DNA of 58,277 nucleotides from a virus: IMG/VR virus record IMGVR_UViG_3300045988_058281, positions 1-58,277 of that record. One strand, 5' to 3'. A program made the translations under genes and the position numbers. Of the stretch, positions 937-41,582 are shown piece after piece. The notes under the pieces were generated by a model. The model had not been told where the DNA came from. It saw only the letters and a program-made list of their open reading frames with translations, and ran no database searches. Each line of letters starts with the position of its first letter. Position 1 is the stretch's first letter.

Positions 937-1371
937 ATGGGAGCCTTACTTCAAAGACATCGCTCCTATTCTATCAAAACTCTACTTTATGACCAACTCA
1001 GGAACTATCAAATACATTGTGGCGACTATGATTTTCAAGAAGATGTCCTTTCTCGAATGGAGGAACGAACATTGGACTTAACAAAATACGAAATGGAAAC
1101 TATCTATAACTACAATCAGGAAGAGCCTCTTGCCTCCTGCTACACGATGGACCGTGCCCTGATCCGCCGATTAGATGTACTTGCCGAAAAACACAAAGAA
1201 ATTACTTTACTTAGAAGTGGTGAAGGAATGAGGGAATATACTTTCCCAAAGAAGTGGATTAAAGTCCGCGTCCCAAAGAAACTATCGGACGAACAGCGTG
1301 AAAACATGGCAAAGAGAGCGAGAGAGAGGTTTGGGTTTGCGAAGGAAGGTGACAACTCTGAGCAAGAATGA
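937..1371 (+). CDS. hypothetical protein (start uncertain)
   Basis: 144-aa ORF with no clear RBS at 937. Alternative starts are at 1057, or an overlapping 55-aa ORF at 918..1085 in another frame. The C-terminal half looks protein-like. Confidence 0.45.
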   Translation: MGALLQRHRSYSIKTLLYDQLRNYQIHCGDYDFQEDVLSRMEERTLDLTKYEMETIYNYNQEEPLASCYTMDRALIRRLDVLAEKHKEITLLRSGEGMREYTFPKKWIKVRVPKKLSDEQRENMAKRARERFGFAKEGDNSEQE

Positions 1372-1903: not shown

Positions 1904-2005
1904 CGACTATGGCAACGACTATCGACTATGGTAGCGACTATGGCACAGATTCCATCGACTATCAAACGACTATGGCTGAAGATTCGCCAATGGCTATCGA
2001 CTATG
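1904..2005 (+). repeat. array of 7 CGACTAT(GG) repeats (candidate pac/TerS binding array)
   Basis: Copies start at 1904, 1916, 1923, 1935, 1956, 1967 and 1998. Isolated copies lie at 1023 and at 1374, the latter containing the terS ATG. Confidence 0.8.
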
Positions 2006-2217
2006 ACAGACTCTCGCGCGGGAAGCTGTGCCCGCTCAAAGCTACTGAGCCGCCCGATCTGGACGCAATACTGAGGGTTGGCGCGATAAAGTGCCGCACT
2101 GATGGCGAGCCGCCCCGCGTGGAGTATATCGGCGGGCAGTGTGACGGCCCCCGCTGCGCCTGGTGGGATGCGATGGCGGAGCGCTGCGCCGTCCTCTCCC
2201 TGGCCCGGAACAAATGA
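1909..2217 (+). CDS. hypothetical Cys-containing protein; N-terminus encoded by the repeat array
   Basis: 102-aa ORF. Repetitive IDY/DYG N-terminus and a CxxxxxC...C C-terminal half. Confidence 0.5.
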   Translation: MATTIDYGSDYGTDSIDYQTTMAEDSPMAIDYDRLSRGKLCPLKATEPPDLDAILRVGAIKCRTDGEPPRVEYIGGQCDGPRCAWWDAMAERCAVLSLARNK

Positions 2218-2221
2218 CAAC

Positions 2222-2261
2222 GCCCCGGCTTGCTCCTAGCGGAGTGGGCCGGGGTTGCTTT
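2222..2261 (+). terminator. stem-loop after the terS unit
   Basis: GCCCCGGC (2222..2229) pairs with GCCGGGGT (2248..2255), followed by TTGCTTT. The loop is large, so this is a weak call. Confidence 0.4.
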
Positions 2262-2489
2262 ATGACCTGCTGGCCGCTCTGTGGGACGCTGTAGGCCGTT
2301 TAGGGTCGCGGGAGTATAGGGATACTTCCAGACGCTAAAATCCGCTCTACGGGCCTGTAAATGGCCTTTACGGAGGTTTTACTTTTTTGCCTCTCCCCTG
2401 CCCCGCTGGACACGGGCACAAAAATGCCGCCTAGAGGCCATAGGATGCCACGCAAGCGGCGGGAAGCTATTGGAGGGTATAGGAAACAC

Positions 2490-2528
2490 GGGAAAAAGAA
2501 AACCCGCCCCAGGAAAGCCCAGGGCGGG
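2490..2528 (-). terminator. intrinsic terminator of the minus-strand cassette
   Basis: Minus strand reads CCCGCCCUGGGCUUUCCUGGGGCGGG followed by UUUUCUUUUU. Confidence 0.7.
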
Positions 2529-2601
2529 CGCTGTGGTACTCAAGATTTTTTCGCCGTCTCCCAGATCACCATAAATGGAAGAAGGACAATAAACAGGATA
2601 A

Positions 2602-2940
2602 TCAAGCGGGGGTCATCTCCTCCCACGTTTTGCCCATACGGCGCACAAAATAATAACTTGCGCCGTAGTCCTCTATGGTGTCTCCTGTCGGGGGCAAATC
2701 ATGCGCCAAAAATACCATGATAACCGCCTTGATCCATTCTCGGCGGGCCTCAAAATAATCTTCCCGTCTTACGTCAATATCATAGCCAACGACAAAACAG
2801 AGCGGGCAACGGTCATACAGGCCGGACAAATCAAAATCAATGTACGTTGTTCCGGGAATCGCTGTCAAATCGTTTTCCAACGCTTGCAGCCGGTCAAGCA
2901 GTCCAAAACGGGCCGCAGTGTCAATTTCTCTTTTCTTCAT
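2602..2940 (-). CDS. hypothetical protein
   Basis: Start MKKREI at 2940 is preceded by GGAGGAA with a 6-nt spacer. 112 aa. Confidence 0.6.
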   Translation of the reverse strand: MKKREIDTAARFGLLDRLQALENDLTAIPGTTYIDFDLSGLYDRCPLCFVVGYDIDVRREDYFEARREWIKAVIMVFLAHDLPPTGDTIEDYGASYYFVRRMGKTWEEMTPA

Positions 2941-2970
2941 GGTCATTTCCTCCATTCTCCGGCGGGCGGG

Positions 2971-3174
2971 TTAAGCCCGCGCCGCGTTGTCAATGTCGCT
3001 TTCCCTAACCGCCCACGTTTGGCGGCGGGGATCGTTTACAAGTTCGAAAGTATACCACCAGCCGCCCGCGTCGTAATGCTCAAACCGGACGTTGCGCACA
3101 AGGCCCGGGAATGTGCGGGATAACATTTTCCACAACTCAAGATCAGCCATTCGGCGGCGCTCCTCGAATGTCAT
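2971..3174 (-). CDS. hypothetical protein
   Basis: Start MTFEE at 3174 is preceded by GAGGAGGG with an 8-nt spacer. 67 aa. Confidence 0.55.
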   Translation of the reverse strand: MTFEERRRMADLELWKMLSRTFPGLVRNVRFEHYDAGGWWYTFELVNDPRRQTWAVRESDIDNAARA

Positions 3175-3188
3175 TTTTTCGGCCCTCC

Positions 3189-3623
3189 TCATGCGTACAT
3201 TTCTACGACGTAAACCGGGGCGGAATTGTCAATCAGCATTTCCCCGGCGGCCTGCACCGCGTCTTTCACACGCTCCCAGCCGCACCCGCCAACCTCTGAG
3301 TTGAACTTAATACCGGCGGCCCTAAACGCAGATTCTACAGCGGCGCTTCCCTTGTGATACCCATAGCCCCCAGCTGTTCCGCTCCCGCTGTTCCAGCACC
3401 CGCCCATGTCGTTTTTTGCAAATTCTCCGGGCTGATAGCACCAAACGCAAGCATAGGGCGTTCCGCTGCTGGTAAACGCAATTCTGAGATCTACCAGGTC
3501 AACGAGCTTCCCGGCGTCCATGTACACGGCCTTATATCCACGGGCAAGGCCGTTTTTCTCTTCCCGCTCACGGTGGGAAAGGCGGATTCCTTCGGCGTTT
3601 TGCTTAATCATGGTTGCATTCAT
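3189..3623 (-). CDS. hypothetical protein (GGYGYHKGSAA motif)
   Basis: Start MNATMIKQ at 3623 is preceded by AAGGGAG with an 8-nt spacer. 144 aa. Confidence 0.65.
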   Translation of the reverse strand: MNATMIKQNAEGIRLSHREREEKNGLARGYKAVYMDAGKLVDLVDLRIAFTSSGTPYACVWCYQPGEFAKNDMGGCWNSGSGTAGGYGYHKGSAAVESAFRAAGIKFNSEVGGCGWERVKDAVQAAGEMLIDNSAPVYVVEMYA

Positions 3624-3906
3624 TTTTATAACTCCCTTCTTGTATTCCGGGCCCGCCCGTGATACAATAGGGGCGCGCCCTGGTTCGTGGTTGTTCTGGG
3701 GTTTTCTTTGCCCTGGCCACTGTTGCAAGCGGTGGCCGGGGCTTTATTTTTTAGGACACGGGGGAAAATTTACGGCATTGCCCCCTCTGCGCTCCTGCTG
3801 CCCTGTCAGGTCGTTCTCTTAGACGATTTGTCCCAGTTTCAAATTTCATCGCGTACACTGGGAGTTCTACACGTCGCCGCTATTGCGCTACGTGTGGGTT
3901 TAGCTT

Positions 3907-3963
3907 CCCACGACGCCCTTTCGGGCGTTTCGGCCGGTTGCCGTCCGGCTCTCGTCAGGTGGG
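3907..3963 (-). ncRNA. hammerhead ribozyme, type I topology (stem I open)
   Basis: Minus strand reads CCCAC-CUGACGA-G(A)GCCGG-ACGGCAA-CCGGCC-GAAA-CGCCC-GAAA-GGGCG-UC/GUGGG. All conserved core nucleotides are present. Predicted cleavage is after C at 3912. Confidence 0.8.
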
Positions 3964-4104
3964 GATCGCAGCCTGCAGCGCGTTGTACAGCGCACAATAC
4001 GCGTCGTAACTGGCGGCGTGGATGTTGGCGGCGTCGTTGATCGCCTCGTCTCTGCGGATTCCGTGCTCCATTGCACACATAACCTCTCTAATGATGTTTT
4101 CCAT
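3955..4104 (-). CDS. small hypothetical protein (49 aa)
   Basis: Start MENIIREV at 4104 with a GGGAGGGAAAG RBS. Its UGA stop (3957..3955) is part of the hammerhead CUGA core. Confidence 0.5.
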   Translation of the reverse strand: MENIIREVMCAMEHGIRRDEAINDAANIHAASYDAYCALYNALQAAIPT

Positions 4105-4155
4105 TTTCTTTCCCTCCCGGCCTGTGGCCTGTCGTTGTTTGTTCCTTGTGAGTAT

Positions 4156-4184
4156 AATATAGCATATCATTTGGGTTGTGTCAA
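4156..4184 (-). promoter_or_regulatory. sigma-A-type promoter of the minus-strand cassette
   Basis: On the minus strand: TTGACA (4184..4179), 17-nt spacer, TATATT (4161..4156). Confidence 0.6.
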
Positions 4185-4476
4185 TATATTTTGAGATAAT
4201 TTAGTATCAGAATAACGCACAAATAACCCGTGTGCAATTTGTTTATATTGTATCATTAGATTATAACCTAAAGATACGGTTAAAGGAGAGGCCACGCTGG
4301 CCATAGCAGGCAACGGGCCGTGCAAGCCACACCGGCGGGGGATATTTGGCGGAATAATGTAGGTAGGTCAGTCCCATCAGCACCGAAAACAGAAAAAAGG
4401 CCTTGATGTATCAAAATTTATATTGACACAAAAGAAATGATATGATACCATTGATACAATGAAGGAGGCGAGACAA

Positions 4477-5067
4477 ATGAGAATTGGATATGTGCGGGTG
4501 TCCACAGAGGGGCAGAATACTGACCGGCAAGACGAGTTAATGCGAGAACTGAATGTTGAAAAGGTATATACTGATAAGCAGAGCGGGAAGAGCAAGGAGC
4601 GCCCCGGACTGAAAGACATGATGAATTTTGTCCGTGAGGGAGACACGGTTGTTGTTGAAAGCATTAGTAGGTTTGCGAGAAGTACGAAAGACCTTCTTAG
4701 TTTGTTGGATGATTTGAAGGTGAAGGGCGTAGAGTTTTACTCCAAGAAAGAGGCGTTTGACACCACTACTCCGCAGGGGAAATTTGTGTTGACGATGTTC
4801 GGCGCGCTGGCGGAGCTGGAGCGGGAACAGATTTTGCAGAGACAAGCCGAAGGGATTGCGGAGGCGAAAAAGAAAGGGAAGTACACTGGAAGAAAGCCTA
4901 TTGCCGTTGATGAAGATGCTTTCACGGAGCAGTATAGGGCGTGGAAGAATGGGGAGACTTCCCCGAAGTTTATTTGTAAGAAACTTGGGCTAAGCCACGC
5001 CACCTTCTATCGCAGGGTAAAGGCTTACGAGGAAAAGCACGGAATAGTTAAAACGGAGGATAACTGA
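4477..5067 (+). CDS. small serine recombinase (resolvase/invertase family)
   Basis: MRIGYVRVSTEGQNTDRQ catalytic N-terminus, a GKYTGRKP linker and a C-terminal HTH (LGLSHATFYRRV). GAAGGAGG RBS. Confidence 0.9.
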   Translation: MRIGYVRVSTEGQNTDRQDELMRELNVEKVYTDKQSGKSKERPGLKDMMNFVREGDTVVVESISRFARSTKDLLSLLDDLKVKGVEFYSKKEAFDTTTPQGKFVLTMFGALAELEREQILQRQAEGIAEAKKKGKYTGRKPIAVDEDAFTEQYRAWKNGETSPKFICKKLGLSHATFYRRVKAYEEKHGIVKTEDN

Positions 5068-5423
5068 TGGATGAAAAAGTGTTCAATCATGGCCTGTTAT
5101 CTTATCTTGAAGGAAAAGTTGTAGAGAATGGAACGATGCACATAGATTCTGTTTTTCGGTTTGAGAAAAATCCAGAAGATTTGCCTGCGTTCCTTTGGAT
5201 AGCAAAAGAGAAAAATTGCACTATTGTTTTTGAAAACGAGGGATACACATTCAAGCCGCAGTCAGAAAACGACATGGGCGATGCCACAGTTCTTTCTGGG
5301 CTGATGATTTACATGAATATGGGGAAAACATTGTTTGGAAAGCGGGTAAATTATCTGATGAACCTGCTGACAAATGAGAATTGGGTAAAGGGCGTACACG
5401 AGCCTATTTTGGGGGAGGGATAA
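5067..5423 (+). CDS. hypothetical protein
   Basis: 118-aa ORF. Its ATG overlaps the recombinase stop (TGATG). AT-rich like its neighbours. Confidence 0.6.
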   Translation: MDEKVFNHGLLSYLEGKVVENGTMHIDSVFRFEKNPEDLPAFLWIAKEKNCTIVFENEGYTFKPQSENDMGDATVLSGLMIYMNMGKTLFGKRVNYLMNLLTNENWVKGVHEPILGEG

Positions 5424-5425
5424 TC

Positions 5426-5953
5426 ATGCGGGGCAGGAAATCCACTACTGGTTTGATAATGCTGATTATCCTTATTGGGGTTCCGTTATATTTGTTGTCT
5501 GAATATCCGTGGGTCATACTGATACTTGTTGCAGTCGGTGCGGCTGTAATTGTAAGCGTTGTGTCGAGCGGGAAAAATGTCAGACAAGTAGATATGTCAG
5601 AAATTGATATAATGAGCGGAGAGGAATTTGAACGATATGTAGCGGCGCTTCTGAGGGCAAACGGTTTTTCCAATGTGCAGATGACAAAAGCAAGCGGGGA
5701 TTATGGCGTAGATGTTCTTGCAAGCAAAGATGGTGAGCGATATGCGATTCAATGCAAGAGATATGCAAAGAATGTGGGGGTAAAGTCGGTACAGGAAGTA
5801 TACGCCGGAGCACCCATGTATAAGGCGACACGGTGTGCTGTCATCACAAATATGTATTTTTCTGATAACGGAAGGACGCTTGCAAACAAACTTGGCGTTA
5901 AACTGTGGGATAGGACAGATTTAATGCGAATGATGGCAAATGTGCCAAACTAA
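5426..5953 (+). CDS. membrane-anchored restriction-endonuclease-like protein (Mrr_cat-type PD-(D/E)xK domain)
   Basis: Two N-terminal TM helices, then EEFERYVAALLRANGF...GDYGVDVLA...AIQCKRY, typical of the Mrr catalytic domain. Confidence 0.75.
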   Translation: MRGRKSTTGLIMLIILIGVPLYLLSEYPWVILILVAVGAAVIVSVVSSGKNVRQVDMSEIDIMSGEEFERYVAALLRANGFSNVQMTKASGDYGVDVLASKDGERYAIQCKRYAKNVGVKSVQEVYAGAPMYKATRCAVITNMYFSDNGRTLANKLGVKLWDRTDLMRMMANVPN

Positions 5954-6817: not shown

Positions 6818-7031
6818 CAGACACGCGGGTATTTGAGGTTGGAAATGGCTCCCGACACTCCCTTGTATGAGGACGGAACGGGCAGCCGTCGCCCTAGTTG
6901 GAGATGCGTGAGTGCTGACACGCCGCAAGAGAACCTGAGATGCAGGATACGCCGCCCTGCCAAATATCCAGAGTAAGCCGGAGGTGTCTGAATGGATGCT
7001 TCCGGCTTGCTGCATGATTGGAGGGAACATA

Positions 7032-7253
7032 ATGGACTGGATCAAAGTAACGCCTGAGACTATGCCGCCGGATATGGAGCCGGTGATGGTGACGCTGATG
7101 TTTAGTGACGCTGATGGAAAGTTCGTGTGGGCGGATGCCCGATACAACGGCGTGAAATGGGAATATCTATCAAATAGCTGGGATAACGTGTGGAGCGACG
7201 TAGATGGGGAGGTAACTCACTGGATGCCGTACCCAGAACCGGCGGAAGATTGA
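7032..7253 (+). CDS. DUF551-like phage protein (second copy)
   Basis: Start MDWIKVTPE with a GGAGGGAA RBS. VTHWMPYPEP motif. Confidence 0.75.
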   Translation: MDWIKVTPETMPPDMEPVMVTLMFSDADGKFVWADARYNGVKWEYLSNSWDNVWSDVDGEVTHWMPYPEPAED

Positions 7254-9061: not shown

Positions 9062-9865
9062 GTGGAAAAGAACAACGACAAAAAATGGATTGGTCAAAAA
9101 TTTGGGAGATTGACTGTCATCGGATTTGAGAAGAAAAAGGAGCCAAGTAGAGGATGGAATTGGGTGTGCAAGTGCGACTGTGGAAATAAAAAGGTAGTAT
9201 CGCCGCAAGATGTAAAATTAGGAAAAACAAAGTCGTGTGGGTGTTATCACGACGAGGTGTGTAAATCCCGTGCAACCAAATATAATCATTTAGTTAAAGA
9301 TTATCCAAGATTACATAGGATATATCACTGGATGAAACGAAGATGCTATGATCCTAAAACACCAAGATACGAAGATTATGGTGGGAGAGGGATTTCAGTT
9401 TCAAGAGAATGGATGGATAAAGCGCATGGATTTGATAATTTTGCGCAATGGTCAATAGATAATGGGTATTCAGATCAACTCACGCTTGATAGGATAGACG
9501 TAAACGGGGATTATTGCCCAGAAAATTGCAGGTGGATAACATATAAAGAACAGAACGGAAATAAGAGAGATACAAAATGGGTTGTTTATCAAGGAGAAAA
9601 AATTCAACTTAAAAAACTATGCGAGAAAATGGGCGTTTGCTATGACACTGTTCATAATCGCATATATTCTTTGGGGTGGGATGTCGAACGTGCTATTATG
9701 GAGCCATCACAACAAGAAAATTCTCTCAGGAAAAAATGCAAAGAAAAGGGTATGAATTATGGGACGGTAAGAAGCCGAATAAAGCAATTCGGATGGTCAG
9801 AAGAACGCGCACTAAACACACCATCTGTTGGACGTGGGGCAAGCAAAAAGACATATACGAAATGA
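9062..9865 (+). CDS. free-standing HNH-type homing endonuclease with tandem C-terminal HTH modules
   Basis: GRLTVIG...CKCDCGNKKVV...SCGC zinc module, YGGRGISV...LTLDRIDVNGDYCPENCRW HNH-like core, and two repeats of G..Y.TV..RI...GW..ERA. AT-rich. An alternative ATG lies at 9032. Confidence 0.75.
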   Translation: MEKNNDKKWIGQKFGRLTVIGFEKKKEPSRGWNWVCKCDCGNKKVVSPQDVKLGKTKSCGCYHDEVCKSRATKYNHLVKDYPRLHRIYHWMKRRCYDPKTPRYEDYGGRGISVSREWMDKAHGFDNFAQWSIDNGYSDQLTLDRIDVNGDYCPENCRWITYKEQNGNKRDTKWVVYQGEKIQLKKLCEKMGVCYDTVHNRIYSLGWDVERAIMEPSQQENSLRKKCKEKGMNYGTVRSRIKQFGWSEERALNTPSVGRGASKKTYTK

Positions 9866-10750: not shown

Positions 10751-10824
10751 ACGGGTGTAGCTCAATGGAGAGCGTCGGATTCCAAATCCGGAGGTTGGGG
10801 GAACAGAGCCTTCCACCCGTGCCA
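10751..10824 (+). tRNA. tRNA-like element, anticodon CCA (Trp), non-canonical T-loop
   Basis: Acceptor ACGGGTG/CACCCGT plus GCCA, D arm GCTC/GAGC, anticodon loop TTCCAAA. The T arm GGGGG-AACAGAG-CCTTC lacks TTC. Confidence 0.5.
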
Positions 10825-10910: not shown

Positions 10911-10984
10911 GGACCATTGGCCCGATGGTCGGGCGGGCCCCTCATAAGGGCTTGGTCTTGGTTCGATTCCAAGATGGTCCACCA
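10911..10984 (+). tRNA. tRNA-Met (anticodon CAT; could be Ile2 if lysidinylated), CCA encoded
   Basis: Full cloverleaf: GGACCAT/ATGGTCC acceptor, GCCC/GGGC D stem, CTCATAA loop, CTTGG-TTCGATT-CCAAG T arm. Confidence 0.85.
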
Positions 10985-11301: not shown

Positions 11302-12792
11302 GTGACTGAAAACGATACTGTTCGAGCTATATCTGAGTGGCCGGTTGATGGGCTGACCGGTCGGCGTAAAATCTACACCACAAAAAAGCGAGTCACCCCG
11401 GAAAACGTGGTGGAGGTGCTGGGCAAGGCACTGGCCGTGCATCGCATCAACAGGGCGGAAATGTCCTATTTGTATGACTATTACAGAGGCAAACAGGACA
11501 TCCGGTTGAAAGATAAAATCGTCCGCCCGGAGATCAACAACAAGGTGATGATTAACCGGGCGAACGAAATCGTGGTCTTCAAGTCTGCTTACCTCCTGGA
11601 TGGCCCAATCCGCTATGTGTCCAACGGTGGAGAAGATGATATTTCCGCCAGTGTGAACACGCTCAACGAGTACATGCGATCTGAGAGTAAAGACACTCTC
11701 GACAAGGAGCTGGCCGACTGGATGCACATCTGCGGTGTAGCGGTTCGTATGGTACTTCCCGATGAGGCTGGGGAGGAAGATGGCTCTCCCGCCTCTATCT
11801 ACACCCTTGACCCGAGGGCGGCGTTTTGCATCTACCACAGTGGCGTAGGGCAGAAAAAGGTCGCTGGTGTTCTGGAACAGGTAGACGAGGAGGGCAAGCC
11901 CTACTTCTGCGTGTACACCCCCGAATGGTATTTTGAGGTGCAGAACGGCCAGATCACTAAGCAGGAAGCCCGTACCATCCCCTACATCCCCATTGTAGAG
12001 TATGTGAATAACGACGCCCGCATGGGTGCGTTTGAGCCAGTTATCCCCATTCTGAACGCGATCAATATGATTGAGTCCAATAGGTTGGACAGTATTCAGG
12101 ATTTTGTCAACGCATATGATGTGTTCCAAAACTGCGAACTAGAAGATGGCAAATACAAAGAACTGGCAAAGGGCGGCATGGCGATAAAAATAAGGAGTTT
12201 TGACCAGACCAAAGACGCCAAGGTCTACCGCATTGCTTCTGAACTGAACCAGACCAACACGCAGACCATTGTGGACGATCTGGAAGACGCATACCTGACG
12301 ATTTGTGGGATGCCGAACCGGAACGGCGGTTCCTCTACAAGCGACACCGGGCAGGCGGTCATTTACCGGGATGGTTGGTCTGCCGCAGAGAGCCGGGCAA
12401 AGGACACGGAAAAGACCTGGGAGCGGTCGGAGCGGGAGTTCCTGCGGCTGGTTCTGTATATCTGCCGTGAGACTGGCGTTTTGGGTTTGCAGTTGGCCGA
12501 CATCAAGCCGGAGTTTACCCGCAAGAACCTGTCCAACATCCAGTCCAAGGCCCAAGTGCTGGCGGAAATGCTGAACAACAGCAAGATTCATCCGAAGTTG
12601 GCGTTCCAGTACAGCGGGCTATTCAGCGACCCAGAGGACGCATACAGGATCAGCATGGAATATGCAGAAGAACAGCAACGCAAAATGGAGCGGAGTTTGA
12701 GGGATGAACTGAATGCCAACAGAAACGAATCCGTACAGACTGGCGGACAAAGCAATAGACCTCCTGAACAGCCGAGCAGTCAAGCGGTTTGA
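11302..12792 (+). CDS. portal protein (SPP1 gp6-like)
   Basis: GTG at 11302 follows GGAGGTG. YLYDYYRGKQDI...INNKVMINRANEIV motifs. Confidence 0.9.
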   Translation: MTENDTVRAISEWPVDGLTGRRKIYTTKKRVTPENVVEVLGKALAVHRINRAEMSYLYDYYRGKQDIRLKDKIVRPEINNKVMINRANEIVVFKSAYLLDGPIRYVSNGGEDDISASVNTLNEYMRSESKDTLDKELADWMHICGVAVRMVLPDEAGEEDGSPASIYTLDPRAAFCIYHSGVGQKKVAGVLEQVDEEGKPYFCVYTPEWYFEVQNGQITKQEARTIPYIPIVEYVNNDARMGAFEPVIPILNAINMIESNRLDSIQDFVNAYDVFQNCELEDGKYKELAKGGMAIKIRSFDQTKDAKVYRIASELNQTNTQTIVDDLEDAYLTICGMPNRNGGSSTSDTGQAVIYRDGWSAAESRAKDTEKTWERSEREFLRLVLYICRETGVLGLQLADIKPEFTRKNLSNIQSKAQVLAEMLNNSKIHPKLAFQYSGLFSDPEDAYRISMEYAEEQQRKMERSLRDELNANRNESVQTGGQSNRPPEQPSSQAV

Positions 12793-13333
12793 GGACGCAA
12801 AAGATGAAGCGGCGCAGAAGGGCTTTGACGAGCTCAATGTGCTGGAAGTCACCCGGACGCTATATGACCAGCTGCGCAAGGACAACCAAGATGTCTTTCT
12901 TGAACTGGCGCAAGAGCGGTATCAGGAAGCCGAACCGCACGGAGAGAAACCGCCTGATTTAGCCTGGCTGCTGGCTCTGCTGGCGGCGTACAACGCTGTG
13001 ACGAAATACCAGTATTCCCATGAATGGGAGCGAAAGCGTGACCGGACAGCGGAGGCTATTAACTCTACTACCGCAAAAGTTACAGAGTTCCGACGGGGCC
13101 TTTCATATTGGGCGCAGATGACGGAATGGTATGCGGTGGAAGTAACAGACCAGTCCACACTGAAAGCATTTCAAGACAGCGGTGTGCGCTATGTAAAATG
13201 GAACACTATGAATGATGGACGGGAGTGTTCCACTTGTAAGGAGCGAGACGGGAAGATTTATCCCATTCGCAGTATTCCACCCAAGCCCCATCCCGGTTGT
13301 CGGTGCTGGTATACACCGACGGAGAAAAAGTGA
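12713..13333 (+). CDS. head morphogenesis protein (SPP1 gp7 / Mu F-like)
   Basis: C-terminal VKWNTMNDGRECSTCKERDGKIY...HPGCRCW motif. Overlaps the portal 3' end by 80 nt. Confidence 0.8.
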   Translation: MPTETNPYRLADKAIDLLNSRAVKRFEDAKDEAAQKGFDELNVLEVTRTLYDQLRKDNQDVFLELAQERYQEAEPHGEKPPDLAWLLALLAAYNAVTKYQYSHEWERKRDRTAEAINSTTAKVTEFRRGLSYWAQMTEWYAVEVTDQSTLKAFQDSGVRYVKWNTMNDGRECSTCKERDGKIYPIRSIPPKPHPGCRCWYTPTEKK

Positions 13334-13426
13334 ATAAACGGGCGGCTATCCCGACGGGGAGAAAAGTGGAGTGCCTTGCCACCTGCCGCCTGTTCATTCA
13401 ACAAGGCTGACTATTGGAGGCGATAG

Positions 13427-36625: not shown

Positions 36626-36860
36626 ACTTTTATTATACCCCAAAGAAAACGAATGTCAACTATGCAGAGTAACGAAGTTACGTCGTTACGTATTTCACAT
36701 AAATCCCACATAACTCCCACACAACTCCCGCATGGATGCCACCCATGCGGGCTTATTCTATGCGACAATATATCCATGGAGGACGTGGGGATCAAGGGTT
36801 GGTACACGTCGCCGCCCTCCTCACGGACTCCATTATTTTTATACAAAGGACGTGTGATAT

Positions 36861-40238: not shown

Positions 40239-40288
40239 TGGTGGAGATAAGCGGGATCGAACCGCTGACCTCTTGAATGCCATTCAAA
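40239..40288 (-). other. 3' fragment of a tRNA gene (candidate attP core)
   Basis: Minus strand carries an anticodon arm (loop ATGGCAT, GGC = Ala if intact), the T arm AGCGG-TTCGATC-CCGCT, and acceptor 3' strand TATCTCC-A-CCA. The 5' acceptor strand and D arm are absent. Confidence 0.7.
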
Positions 40289-40324
40289 GAAAAATCCAGT
40301 AATATCAATACTTTCCGGGATTTT

Positions 40325-40347: not shown

Positions 40348-41481
40348 CTAAATTGCATCAGTCACCTTTCTGAGGTCTTCAAAGGAGACATCTTGATAAT
40401 GTCGGAGCATTTCGGGGGAGGTGTGGCCCATCAATTCCAGCTTGTCCTTATCGGAGCCAGCCACCCGCTTCATCATCGTTGCAAAGGTGTGGCGGCAGCT
40501 GTGTGGAGTGTATTTCCTCCTCTTGACACCATCGACCTCTAGTATTGGATTGTCGATCCCGCAATTATCCAGAACAGAATAAAAGAGAGACCGATATGAG
40601 GCTATACTCATTTGGCTACCATCGGAAGAGCAGAAGACCGGACCAGAGAGCTTGTCTTTTGTAAGTCGGTCCACAATAGGCTGGATCTTCGGAGATACTG
40701 TGACGATACGGTCCTTTCCGGCGTCTGTTTTTGCACCACCAATAAATGCACGTTCTTTTCGATTATAGTTGATGGCGTCCAATGCAAGAAACTCAGATGG
40801 ACGGAATCCTAAATAACACTGACATAGAACATAGTCCGCACCTACGACCGATGAGATATGAGCCTCTATGGACCTGACAGCAGCCTCAGGTAGTGCATCC
40901 TTTCCAGAACCAGCCTCTCCCCCAACGATCAGATACTGGCCCATATTGATTTTTGCCATATTGCGCGGGATCGCATACTTATAGATAAGCCCGGCCAGAG
41001 CTTTCATATTTTCCTGCGTTCGCTTTCCCTTCCCACAGGAGTCTAAACACTCCTGAAGATCATCCACTGTAATGTCTGCCAGCTTCTGATGCCAAATGGG
41101 CCTGAAATACTTTTTAGCAGCCCGGTAGCAGTCCATTGTTGACTTTCCGGCTCGGTGGGTCGGCTCCCACGAATCATAGAGTTCGATGAAAGTGGTGGGA
41201 CGTGTTTTGTCTTCTCGCCCAACCAATGGAAGATACTCCACAGCCTCTTTTTTCGTCCTGAATCCAGATTTTGAGCGGGTGATCCTCCGCATAGTTCCAT
41301 CTGCTGCGGGCTCATAGCCGATGGTCCTTACGGCGATCCACTTTTTGTTGGGAAGCTGATACACGGAGCCCTGACCATTTCCGCGGCCTTTTGGATTTTG
41401 CCTGATATTTTGTGCAACTCCGCAGAGCATACAGAACCGGCTTCCATCTGGTATTTCTCCCCTGCATTTTCTGCATTTCAT
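40348..41481 (-). CDS. int: tyrosine integrase with N-terminal zinc ribbon
   Basis: Start MKCRKCRGEIPDGSRFCMLCG with an AGGAGGGAAA RBS. C-terminal HSCRHTFAT...LMGHTS...RHY catalytic motifs. Confidence 0.9.
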   Translation of the reverse strand: MKCRKCRGEIPDGSRFCMLCGVAQNIRQNPKGRGNGQGSVYQLPNKKWIAVRTIGYEPAADGTMRRITRSKSGFRTKKEAVEYLPLVGREDKTRPTTFIELYDSWEPTHRAGKSTMDCYRAAKKYFRPIWHQKLADITVDDLQECLDSCGKGKRTQENMKALAGLIYKYAIPRNMAKINMGQYLIVGGEAGSGKDALPEAAVRSIEAHISSVVGADYVLCQCYLGFRPSEFLALDAINYNRKERAFIGGAKTDAGKDRIVTVSPKIQPIVDRLTKDKLSGPVFCSSDGSQMSIASYRSLFYSVLDNCGIDNPILEVDGVKRRKYTPHSCRHTFATMMKRVAGSDKDKLELMGHTSPEMLRHYQDVSFEDLRKVTDAI

Positions 41482-41582
41482 TGACAGTTTCCCTCCTATC
41501 ATGTAAAATAGAAGGGCAGATCGCCGACCATAGCTTCTGCCCCCCTTCCCTGCCCGGTGTTGGTAGCGCCGGGTGGGGATTT

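Follow-up and report, generated by a model that had tools for sequence, protein, structure and literature searches.

We report that a viral genome fragment of 58,277 nt, the whole of which we refer to as the window, contains one type I hammerhead ribozyme on its minus strand, at 3963..3907, which by its sequence and structure is very probably a true hammerhead. The ribozyme lies between a small open reading frame (ORF) at 3955..4104 and a gene at 3189..3623, and it is on the sense (minus) strand for both. It is a member of the pseudoknot-bearing phage hammerheads, a kind known since 2011, and not a new type of element. Its most likely role, we propose, is to cut an operon transcript and leave ends that are protected by hairpins. 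We assign a probability of roughly 0.7 to the reading that the hammerhead is functional, that is, that it would cleave actively and play a part in processing and end protection, the functional part being the least certain. What is added here to the known phage hammerheads is a large subfamily invisible to Rfam, a conserved hairpin in the 3′ product, and a natural pair of alleles.

Read on the minus strand, the element is CCCAC CUGACGA G-A-GCCGG ACGGCAA CCGGC-C GAA A-CGCCC GAAA GGGCG-U C / GUGGG, where the slash marks the predicted cut. Its parts are as follows.

3907..3963, minus strand: type I hammerhead ribozyme, from the 5′ strand to the 3′ strand of stem I, with the predicted cut at C3912/G3911
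3963-3959 and 3911-3907, minus strand: the two strands of stem I, CCCAC and GUGGG, 5 bp, open and hence of type I topology
3952..3958, minus strand: core strand CUGACGA (C3 U4 G5 A6 C7 G8 A9)
3932..3951, minus strand: stem II, 6 bp, made of G10.1-C11.1 (G3951, C3932), a bulged A3950, and GCCGG 3949-3945 paired with CCGGC 3937-3933
3944-3938, minus strand: loop II, ACGGCAA, 7 nt
3913..3928, minus strand: stem III, 6 bp, made of A15.1-U16.1 and CGCCC/GGGCG, with a GAAA loop at 3922-3919
3940..3942, minus strand: 5′ half of the pseudoknot, GGC in loop II
3902..3904, minus strand: 3′ half of the pseudoknot, GCU in the 3′ tail, giving two G-C pairs and one G-U pair in this copy
3894..3911, minus strand: alternative or post-cleavage hairpin, GUGGG 3911-3907, loop AAGCUAAA, CCCAC 3898-3894

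The other core positions are GAA (G12 A13 A14) at 3931-3929, the pair A15.1-U16.1 formed by A3928 and U3913, and C17 (H17), which is C3912. All positions of the conserved hammerhead core are thereby present in the window copy. Three helices leave a single junction, stems II and III being closed by loops and stem I open, and the arrangement matches our descriptor with stems of 5, 6 and 6 bp. An initial annotation, made from the letters of the DNA, had already placed a complete type I core at this position, with a 6-bp stem II carrying a bulged A, a 6-bp stem III capped by a GAAA loop, and an open stem I of 5 bp; the sequence and the descriptor bear out each of these particulars. The same annotation put cleavage after C3912, where we too predict it from the sequence, and it rightly noticed that the stop codon of the ORF at 3955..4104 is the UGA of the core (3957-3955).

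An element of this size might be a chance match to the hammerhead consensus, within or beside coding sequence, and such a reading could appeal to Rfam. At gathering thresholds, Rfam reports no hammerhead family in the window. Hammerhead_1 (RF00163) gives 17.2 bits (E = 0.31) on a 500-nt slice, against a gathering score of 34, and no match at E ≤ 1 over the whole window. Yet the RF00163 alignment places every core position correctly, and the score is low because stems II and III show up as long insertions, of 18 and 10 nt respectively. Moreover, in 10 related loci that hold about 30 copies of the family, no copy attains any Rfam hammerhead threshold. Since all of the tested copies fail in the same way, the failure is a limit of the model and not of the RNA, and we therefore rejected the Rfam score as a test of membership. 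The initial annotation had named the Rfam hammerhead models as a check, and a failure to score against them as a refutation. That check was run, and the window copy does fall short of the cut-off; but because Rfam misses the entire subfamily, to read the result as a refutation would be to accept a false negative.

The remaining evidence makes a chance match vanishingly unlikely. Our own type I descriptor finds a single site in the window, both strands included. In 300 shuffles of the window that preserve dinucleotide counts, the same descriptor, set loosely to accept stems down to 4, 3 and 3 bp, yields 0.023 matches per window; with stems as long as those observed, it yields none. Under a covariance model from which the window sequence was left out, the window copy scores 83.9 bits (E = 2.6e-21), and there is extensive covariation among 67–121 homologues, as described below. 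Thus the shuffles, the covariation and the window-free family model together refute the chance reading. No further hammerhead copy was found in the window, either by the descriptor or by the family model with its filters off, and an arrangement of several copies flanking a gene or gene block is accordingly absent from the window, which has a single copy.

The relatives of the ribozyme were gathered by patterns derived from the window sequence. Two pattern scans of viral contigs gave 17 and 70 loci, and the first family model was built from 67 sequences, its seed being restricted to copies whose stem I has 5 bp or more, a filter that let through 68 of the 76 distinct copies listed. The family-model search finds at least 121 copies of the same architecture in 77 viral loci, which we denote by L and a number. 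In the 67-sequence alignment, 96.1% of cells form standard pairs under the proposed structure, and 15 of its 21 pairs change on both sides, in counts that ignore shared ancestry. As a control, sliding the partner by 1–3 columns in the same alignment leaves only 25–43% paired, and none of 500 alignment shuffles reached pairing and covariation values as high as those observed. For example, stem I occurs as CCCAC/GUGGG, CCCGC/GCGGG, CCCAA/UUGGG, UCCAA/UUGGA and CCUAC/GUAGG, among other variants. In stem II, the covarying columns include 20-41 (CG in 33 sequences, UA in 33) and 30-40 (GC in 61, AU in 5), and five of the six pairs of stem III show changes on both sides among the 67 sequences.

Many relatives occur in groups: 25 of 70 contig fragments have 2–6 hammerhead copies each, with a likeness of 0.64 between copies within a contig versus 0.55 between contigs. 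Family copies lie 0–27 nt past an upstream stop codon, the next start codon follows at a median of 53 nt, and the copies in relatives mostly come after amidoligase-like genes. The core UGA doubles as the stop of the upstream ORF in 19 of 100 family copies (about 19%). Matches to genomes fall in assemblies of Oscillospiraceae and other Clostridia, plus one Paenibacillus, and the window ribozyme belongs to a large family found in Clostridia phages and prophages.

Two observations on individual relatives may be recorded here. In locus L040, six hammerhead copies are arrayed at 1944-4992, about 330–970 nt apart, and upstream of them lies a pistol ribozyme at 1279-1355 (plus strand), which at 53.8 bits exceeds its gathering score. 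A core with U4 replaced by C (CCGA for CUGA) is found in L095 at about 12780-12842 (minus strand), in L014 at 9770-9850 (plus strand) and in L040 at 3387-3475 (plus strand); this natural variant is reported to lower activity in vitro (Perreault et al. 2011, PMC3088659).

Beyond the three helices, the family has a tertiary contact. The loop II consensus A-Y-G-G-Y pairs with a tail R-C-C-A, two A residues past stem I, to form 3–4 bp. The key pair, column 36-100 of the 67-sequence alignment, is CG in 38 sequences and UA in 25, and members with other loops keep the pairing, as UGAC/GUCA, UGAU/AUCA, GGUC/GACC, GAC/GUC or GCAAG/CUUGC. At least three contiguous Watson-Crick pairs are present in 103 of 107 distinct members, and the mean number of pairs is 3.54, versus 2.72 ± 0.07 when tails are swapped between members. 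By this covariation, the tertiary contact predicted to align stems I and II is a pseudoknot between loop II and the 3′ tail. In the window it is formed by GGC 3942-3940 and GCU 3904-3902, with two Watson-Crick pairs and one G-U pair, which puts it among the four weakest of the 107. Pseudoknots are described in all three hammerhead types, and disrupting one of them lowers the cleavage rate by 20- to >100-fold (Perreault et al. 2011, PMC3088659).

A second conserved pairing involves the 3′ strand of stem I. The initial annotation had suggested a folding switch, in which the released GUGGG would pair instead with a nearby CCCAC. The pairing holds and is conserved, although the CCCAC lies at 3898..3894 rather than at 3897..3893. 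Among distinct members, 76 of 106 have an exact complement to the first four nucleotides of the 3′ product no more than 20 nt away; in 2000 control trials with flanks swapped between members, the count is 20.6 ± 4.1 and never exceeds 33. The hairpin is found across different stem I sequences (9 of 9 members with GCGGG, 9 of 9 with UUGGG, 7 of 7 with UUGGA), and its closing pair, column 93-104, is GC in 31 cases and UA in 16. The local minimum free energy (MFE) fold favours the GUGGG/CCCAC hairpin over stem I of the hammerhead. The hammerhead fold has a computed energy of -26.8 kcal/mol, without tertiary terms, versus -27.9 kcal/mol for the alternative, so that the difference is within 1.2; the isolated hairpin has -6.5 to -8.2 kcal/mol. 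In its short form, GUGG-GAAR-CCAC, the hairpin overlaps the pseudoknot nucleotides, and since these nucleotides are shared, hairpin and pseudoknot are mutually exclusive in that form. Transcription reaches the hairpin just 8 nt past stem I, and the nearest-neighbour model gives it a slight edge in stability; an early and stabler competitor of this kind could reduce the fraction of RNA that is cleaved.

Among known systems, the window ribozyme most resembles the phage hammerheads of Perreault et al. 2011 (PMC3088659). It has the same core and three-way junction, it lies between genes of a phage operon, and, as in their set, the alignment of stems I and II relies on a pseudoknot and not on loop-loop contact. 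That work describes hammerheads flanking prophage genes, with tandem sets that cleaved in vitro; cleavage of one set was also seen in E. coli, and the study established no function for them (Perreault et al. 2011, PMC3088659). Like those, the relatives of the window copy occur several at a time around single genes or short blocks; unlike the multi-copy sets, the window itself has a single copy. The subfamily to which the window copy belongs is type I, with a stem II of the form GAGCYGG...CCRGCC and a loop II that pairs with a tail two nucleotides past stem I. Within the supplements of Perreault et al. 2011 (PMC3088659) that were at hand, this stem II was not found, and the available parts of the paper showed no conserved hairpin in which the 3′ strand of stem I is captured again.

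The Rfam families offer further points of comparison. RF00163 Hammerhead_1 (type I, clan CL00010) shares the open stem I topology and the core with the window copy, whose stems II and III are, however, much longer than those of the model. RF02276 Hammerhead_II likewise has a bacterial and phage setting and a pseudoknot as its tertiary contact. In type II, however, stem II is open and loop I pairs with the tail after stem II; in the window, stem I is open, stem II is closed by ACGGCAA, and loop II pairs with the tail after stem I. We therefore rejected a type II assignment, given the closed stem II and open stem I. Twister, pistol and hatchet ribozymes occupy the same kind of phage accessory-gene regions, with different folds and active sites, and according to Rfam none of the three is present at the hammerhead site of the window.

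The window is the genome of a temperate tailed phage, with genes for a large terminase, a portal, a major head protein, a tape measure, a tail protein, a tyrosine integrase and a primase-helicase, and the phage is a temperate phage of gut bacteria. Plus-strand genes, including a small-terminase-like gene, occupy 1-2217, and the minus-strand accessory cassette that holds the ribozyme sits between the genes for the small and the large terminase. When the region 3100-4400 was compared by BLASTN with 50,697 deposited phage genomes, no match was found. The features of the cassette and its surroundings are these.

4156..4184, minus strand: predicted sigma-70-type promoter, TTGACA, 17 nt, TATATT, with TG before the second hexamer; 11 of 12 consensus positions
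3955..4104, minus strand: small upstream ORF, 49 aa, with a GGGAGG ribosome-binding site; no known family
3189..3623, minus strand: first downstream gene, 144 aa, phrog_7028, starting 283 nt after stem I
2971..3192, minus strand: candidate ORF, 73 aa; no family match
2602..2955, minus strand: candidate ORF, 117 aa; no family match
3710..3742, plus strand: intrinsic-terminator-like hairpin, 15 pairs and then TTTATTTTTT, the T-run reaching to about 3752; kept in relatives
4459..5067, plus strand: serine recombinase gene, beside the cassette
5381..5953, plus strand: Mrr-like nuclease gene, beside the cassette

Apart from phrog_7028, of unknown function, the proteins of the cassette have no match in Pfam, PHROGs or NCBIfam, and neither do the overlapping ORFs at 3687-4040 (plus strand) and 3839-4078 (minus strand) match any family. 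The predicted promoter at 4184..4156 would drive the minus-strand cassette. The stretch 4130-4200 of the window thus carries its own promoter-like sequence upstream of the small ORF, next to the divergent serine recombinase gene; at the equivalent position, the close relatives L001-L004 have another minus-strand gene and a GC-rich hairpin. Because the upstream sequence differs, the cassette is wired differently in these close relatives.

The stretch 3624..3911 had been described in the initial annotation as a structured leader. This is right in so far as the 288 nt from 3911 to 3624 fold at z = -2.5; part of that structure, though, is the plus-strand terminator hairpin at 3710..3742 read backwards. 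Variants of the hairpin (in L001-L004, L074 and L094) produce G-U wobbles on the plus strand, where the minus strand would have C-A mismatches, and this pattern suggests that the hairpin works on the plus-strand, that is, the antisense, transcript.

Several other structured RNAs occur elsewhere in the window. A skipping-rope RNA (RF02924) at 6828-6968 (plus strand, 60.8 bits) has a 66-nt insertion in one stem and is followed closely by a phrog_924-like ORF at 6984-7253 and by the large terminase gene; another phrog_924-like ORF is found at 591-869. A RAGATH-31 RNA at 36778-36831 (plus strand, 83.2 bits) and an int-alpA RNA at 13339-13406 (plus strand, 57.5 bits) are two more structured RNAs whose function is unknown. 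Immediately next to the integrase gene at 40348-41502 (minus strand), the stretch 40239-40306 (minus strand) matches the ends of tmRNA below threshold (20 bits, E = 0.0004); it may be an attachment site that arose from the 3′ terminus of host ssrA. Finally, Rfam matches two tRNAs, at 10751-10821 and 10911-10984 (both plus strand); ARAGORN confirms only the latter, as tRNA-Met (CAT), and the former (52 bits) has an irregular T arm.

Comparison of close relatives indicates that the ribozyme is part of a discrete block of sequence, which ends in a spacer.

About 3779..3997, minus strand: 219-nt block that takes in the final 14 codons of the small ORF, then the hammerhead and a 127-nt spacer; absent from L002
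3780..3906, minus strand: the 127-nt spacer, which follows the ribozyme and contains several hairpins; found in near-identical phages only

Locus L002 shares 98.5% identity with the window across 3 kb and yet lacks the 219-nt block, which is present in the window, in L001/L010 and in L093. Without the block, the small ORF of L002 has 35 aa and stops on a TAA made at the junction. Since L002 does without the ribozyme, the ribozyme is dispensable and modular, and any benefit it brings is not essential. It also follows that the overlap of stop codon and core implies no special coupling here, because it arises from the position of the block, the ORF simply meeting its first in-frame stop. We found no terminal repeats and no target-site duplication at the block, the only repetition being imperfect microhomology of 1–4 nt. 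The spacer was not found outside near-identical contigs; a 19-mer match to it in L092 was dismissed as chance. In L003 and L004, a different small ORF occupies the position of the ribozyme, and there is no ribozyme. In L074 and L094, a hammerhead occupies the corresponding site, among other neighbouring ORFs, and the terminator-like hairpin (3710..3742 in the window) follows it within about 10 nt. The window ribozyme sequence recurs at 100% identity in L001/L010; in L093 it falls inside a match of 97.6% identity, and in L094 it is 98% identical. Hammerhead islands of 62 nt, 92–98% identical to the window copy, stand in otherwise unrelated flanks in L094-L096.

Under the functional reading, transcription from the promoter at 4184..4156 would give one RNA comprising the 49-aa ORF, the ribozyme, the 288-nt untranslated stretch and the downstream genes. 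In this RNA, following the structure that family covariation shows, stems II and III would fold locally, CCCAC 3963-3959 and GUGGG 3911-3907 would form stem I, and GGC of loop II would pair with GCU 3904-3902 of the tail, the pseudoknot keeping stems I and II side by side. By the established chemistry of hammerheads, the RNA would then cut itself between C3912 and G3911, producing a 2′,3′-cyclic phosphate and a 5′-OH, a step that we predict here from sequence. The 5-bp stem I would separate, and GUGGG would pair again with CCCAC 3898-3894; the pairing is conserved, and its timing is our supposition. If so, the structure implies that the downstream RNA would begin with a hairpin and the upstream RNA would end in stems II and III. 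As a plausible consequence of the modelled hairpin, the 5′-OH end would be protected from nucleases and religation would be blocked. The net effect would be an irreversible cleavage, after which the small ORF would be independent of the downstream genes in its stability and translation. We rejected circular or spliced RNA products, since there is one cleavage site only, and the single copy in the window likewise means that no gene is excised on both sides.

It is important to weigh this reading against others that accept the hammerhead as such. The ribozyme may be active but dispensable, a horizontally moving module that is compact and harmless, or that aids recombination of the cassette, and does not regulate the operon. 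The presence or absence of the 219-nt block between phages 98.5% identical, the 62-nt islands (92–98% identical) in unrelated flanks of L094-L096, and the greater likeness of copies within a contig (0.64, against 0.55 between contigs) would all be consistent with such mobility. However, the block lacks target-site duplications and terminal repeats, and placement is tightly constrained, right after stop codons and near the next ribosome-binding site; compensatory change, furthermore, maintains both the pseudoknot and the alternative hairpin, which points to selection on RNA function. We regard the purely mobile explanation as unlikely on balance. That the ribozyme has instead decayed, so that it is an inactive or weakened relic with a degraded tertiary contact and a stronger competing hairpin, seems very unlikely. 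The window tail does read GCU where the family has GCC or ACC, a 6-nt insertion extends the competing hairpin to 5 bp, and the MFE fold prefers that hairpin; but the core nucleotides and all three stems are intact, the G-U preserves the third pair of the pseudoknot, and the sequence is retained in relatives (100% in L001/L010, within the 97.6% match in L093, 98% in L094).

A further possibility is a regulated switch, in which ribosomes that terminate at the core or shortly before it hold stem I open, CCCAC competes for GUGGG, and the cleaved fraction reports translation of the ORF and tunes the downstream genes. The stop codon lies in the core here and in 19 of 100 relatives, and at most 27 nt upstream in most others; the hammerhead and its alternative differ little in energy, and the competitor strand is conserved. 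In the window, however, the overlap stems from the 219-nt block, with the ORF running to its first in-frame stop. Tight gene packing alone would explain the short distances, and the 49-aa ORF is itself putative and matches no family. Hence we judge a switch of this kind to be distinctly improbable. More tentatively still than the functional reading, and with considerable doubt on our part, the hammerhead and the recapturing hairpin, about 70 nt in all, may form a self-contained "cut-and-cap" insulator that is exchanged as a module among phages of Clostridia, with the upstream stop codon, placed in the core or beside it, letting translation gate the cut. The pseudoknot and stem I would form first, cleavage would follow, and the downstream strand would then lock a 5′-terminal hairpin, which would make the cut irreversible and protect the 5′-OH mRNA.

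The functional reading, in which cleavage processes the operon transcript and hairpins protect its ends, bears on a question of some standing, since phage and bacterial hammerheads have been catalogued since 2011 and their role is still unsettled. A subfamily that is abundant and yet falls below every Rfam hammerhead threshold is missed in routine annotation. The conserved competing hairpin points to a defined order of folding, cutting and refolding. The natural alleles, two phages 98.5% identical with and without the 219-nt block, allow a direct comparison of downstream expression. If the ribozyme and its hairpin do act together as an insulator, bacterial and phage hammerheads would gain a specific function open to testing, something they have lacked since 2011.
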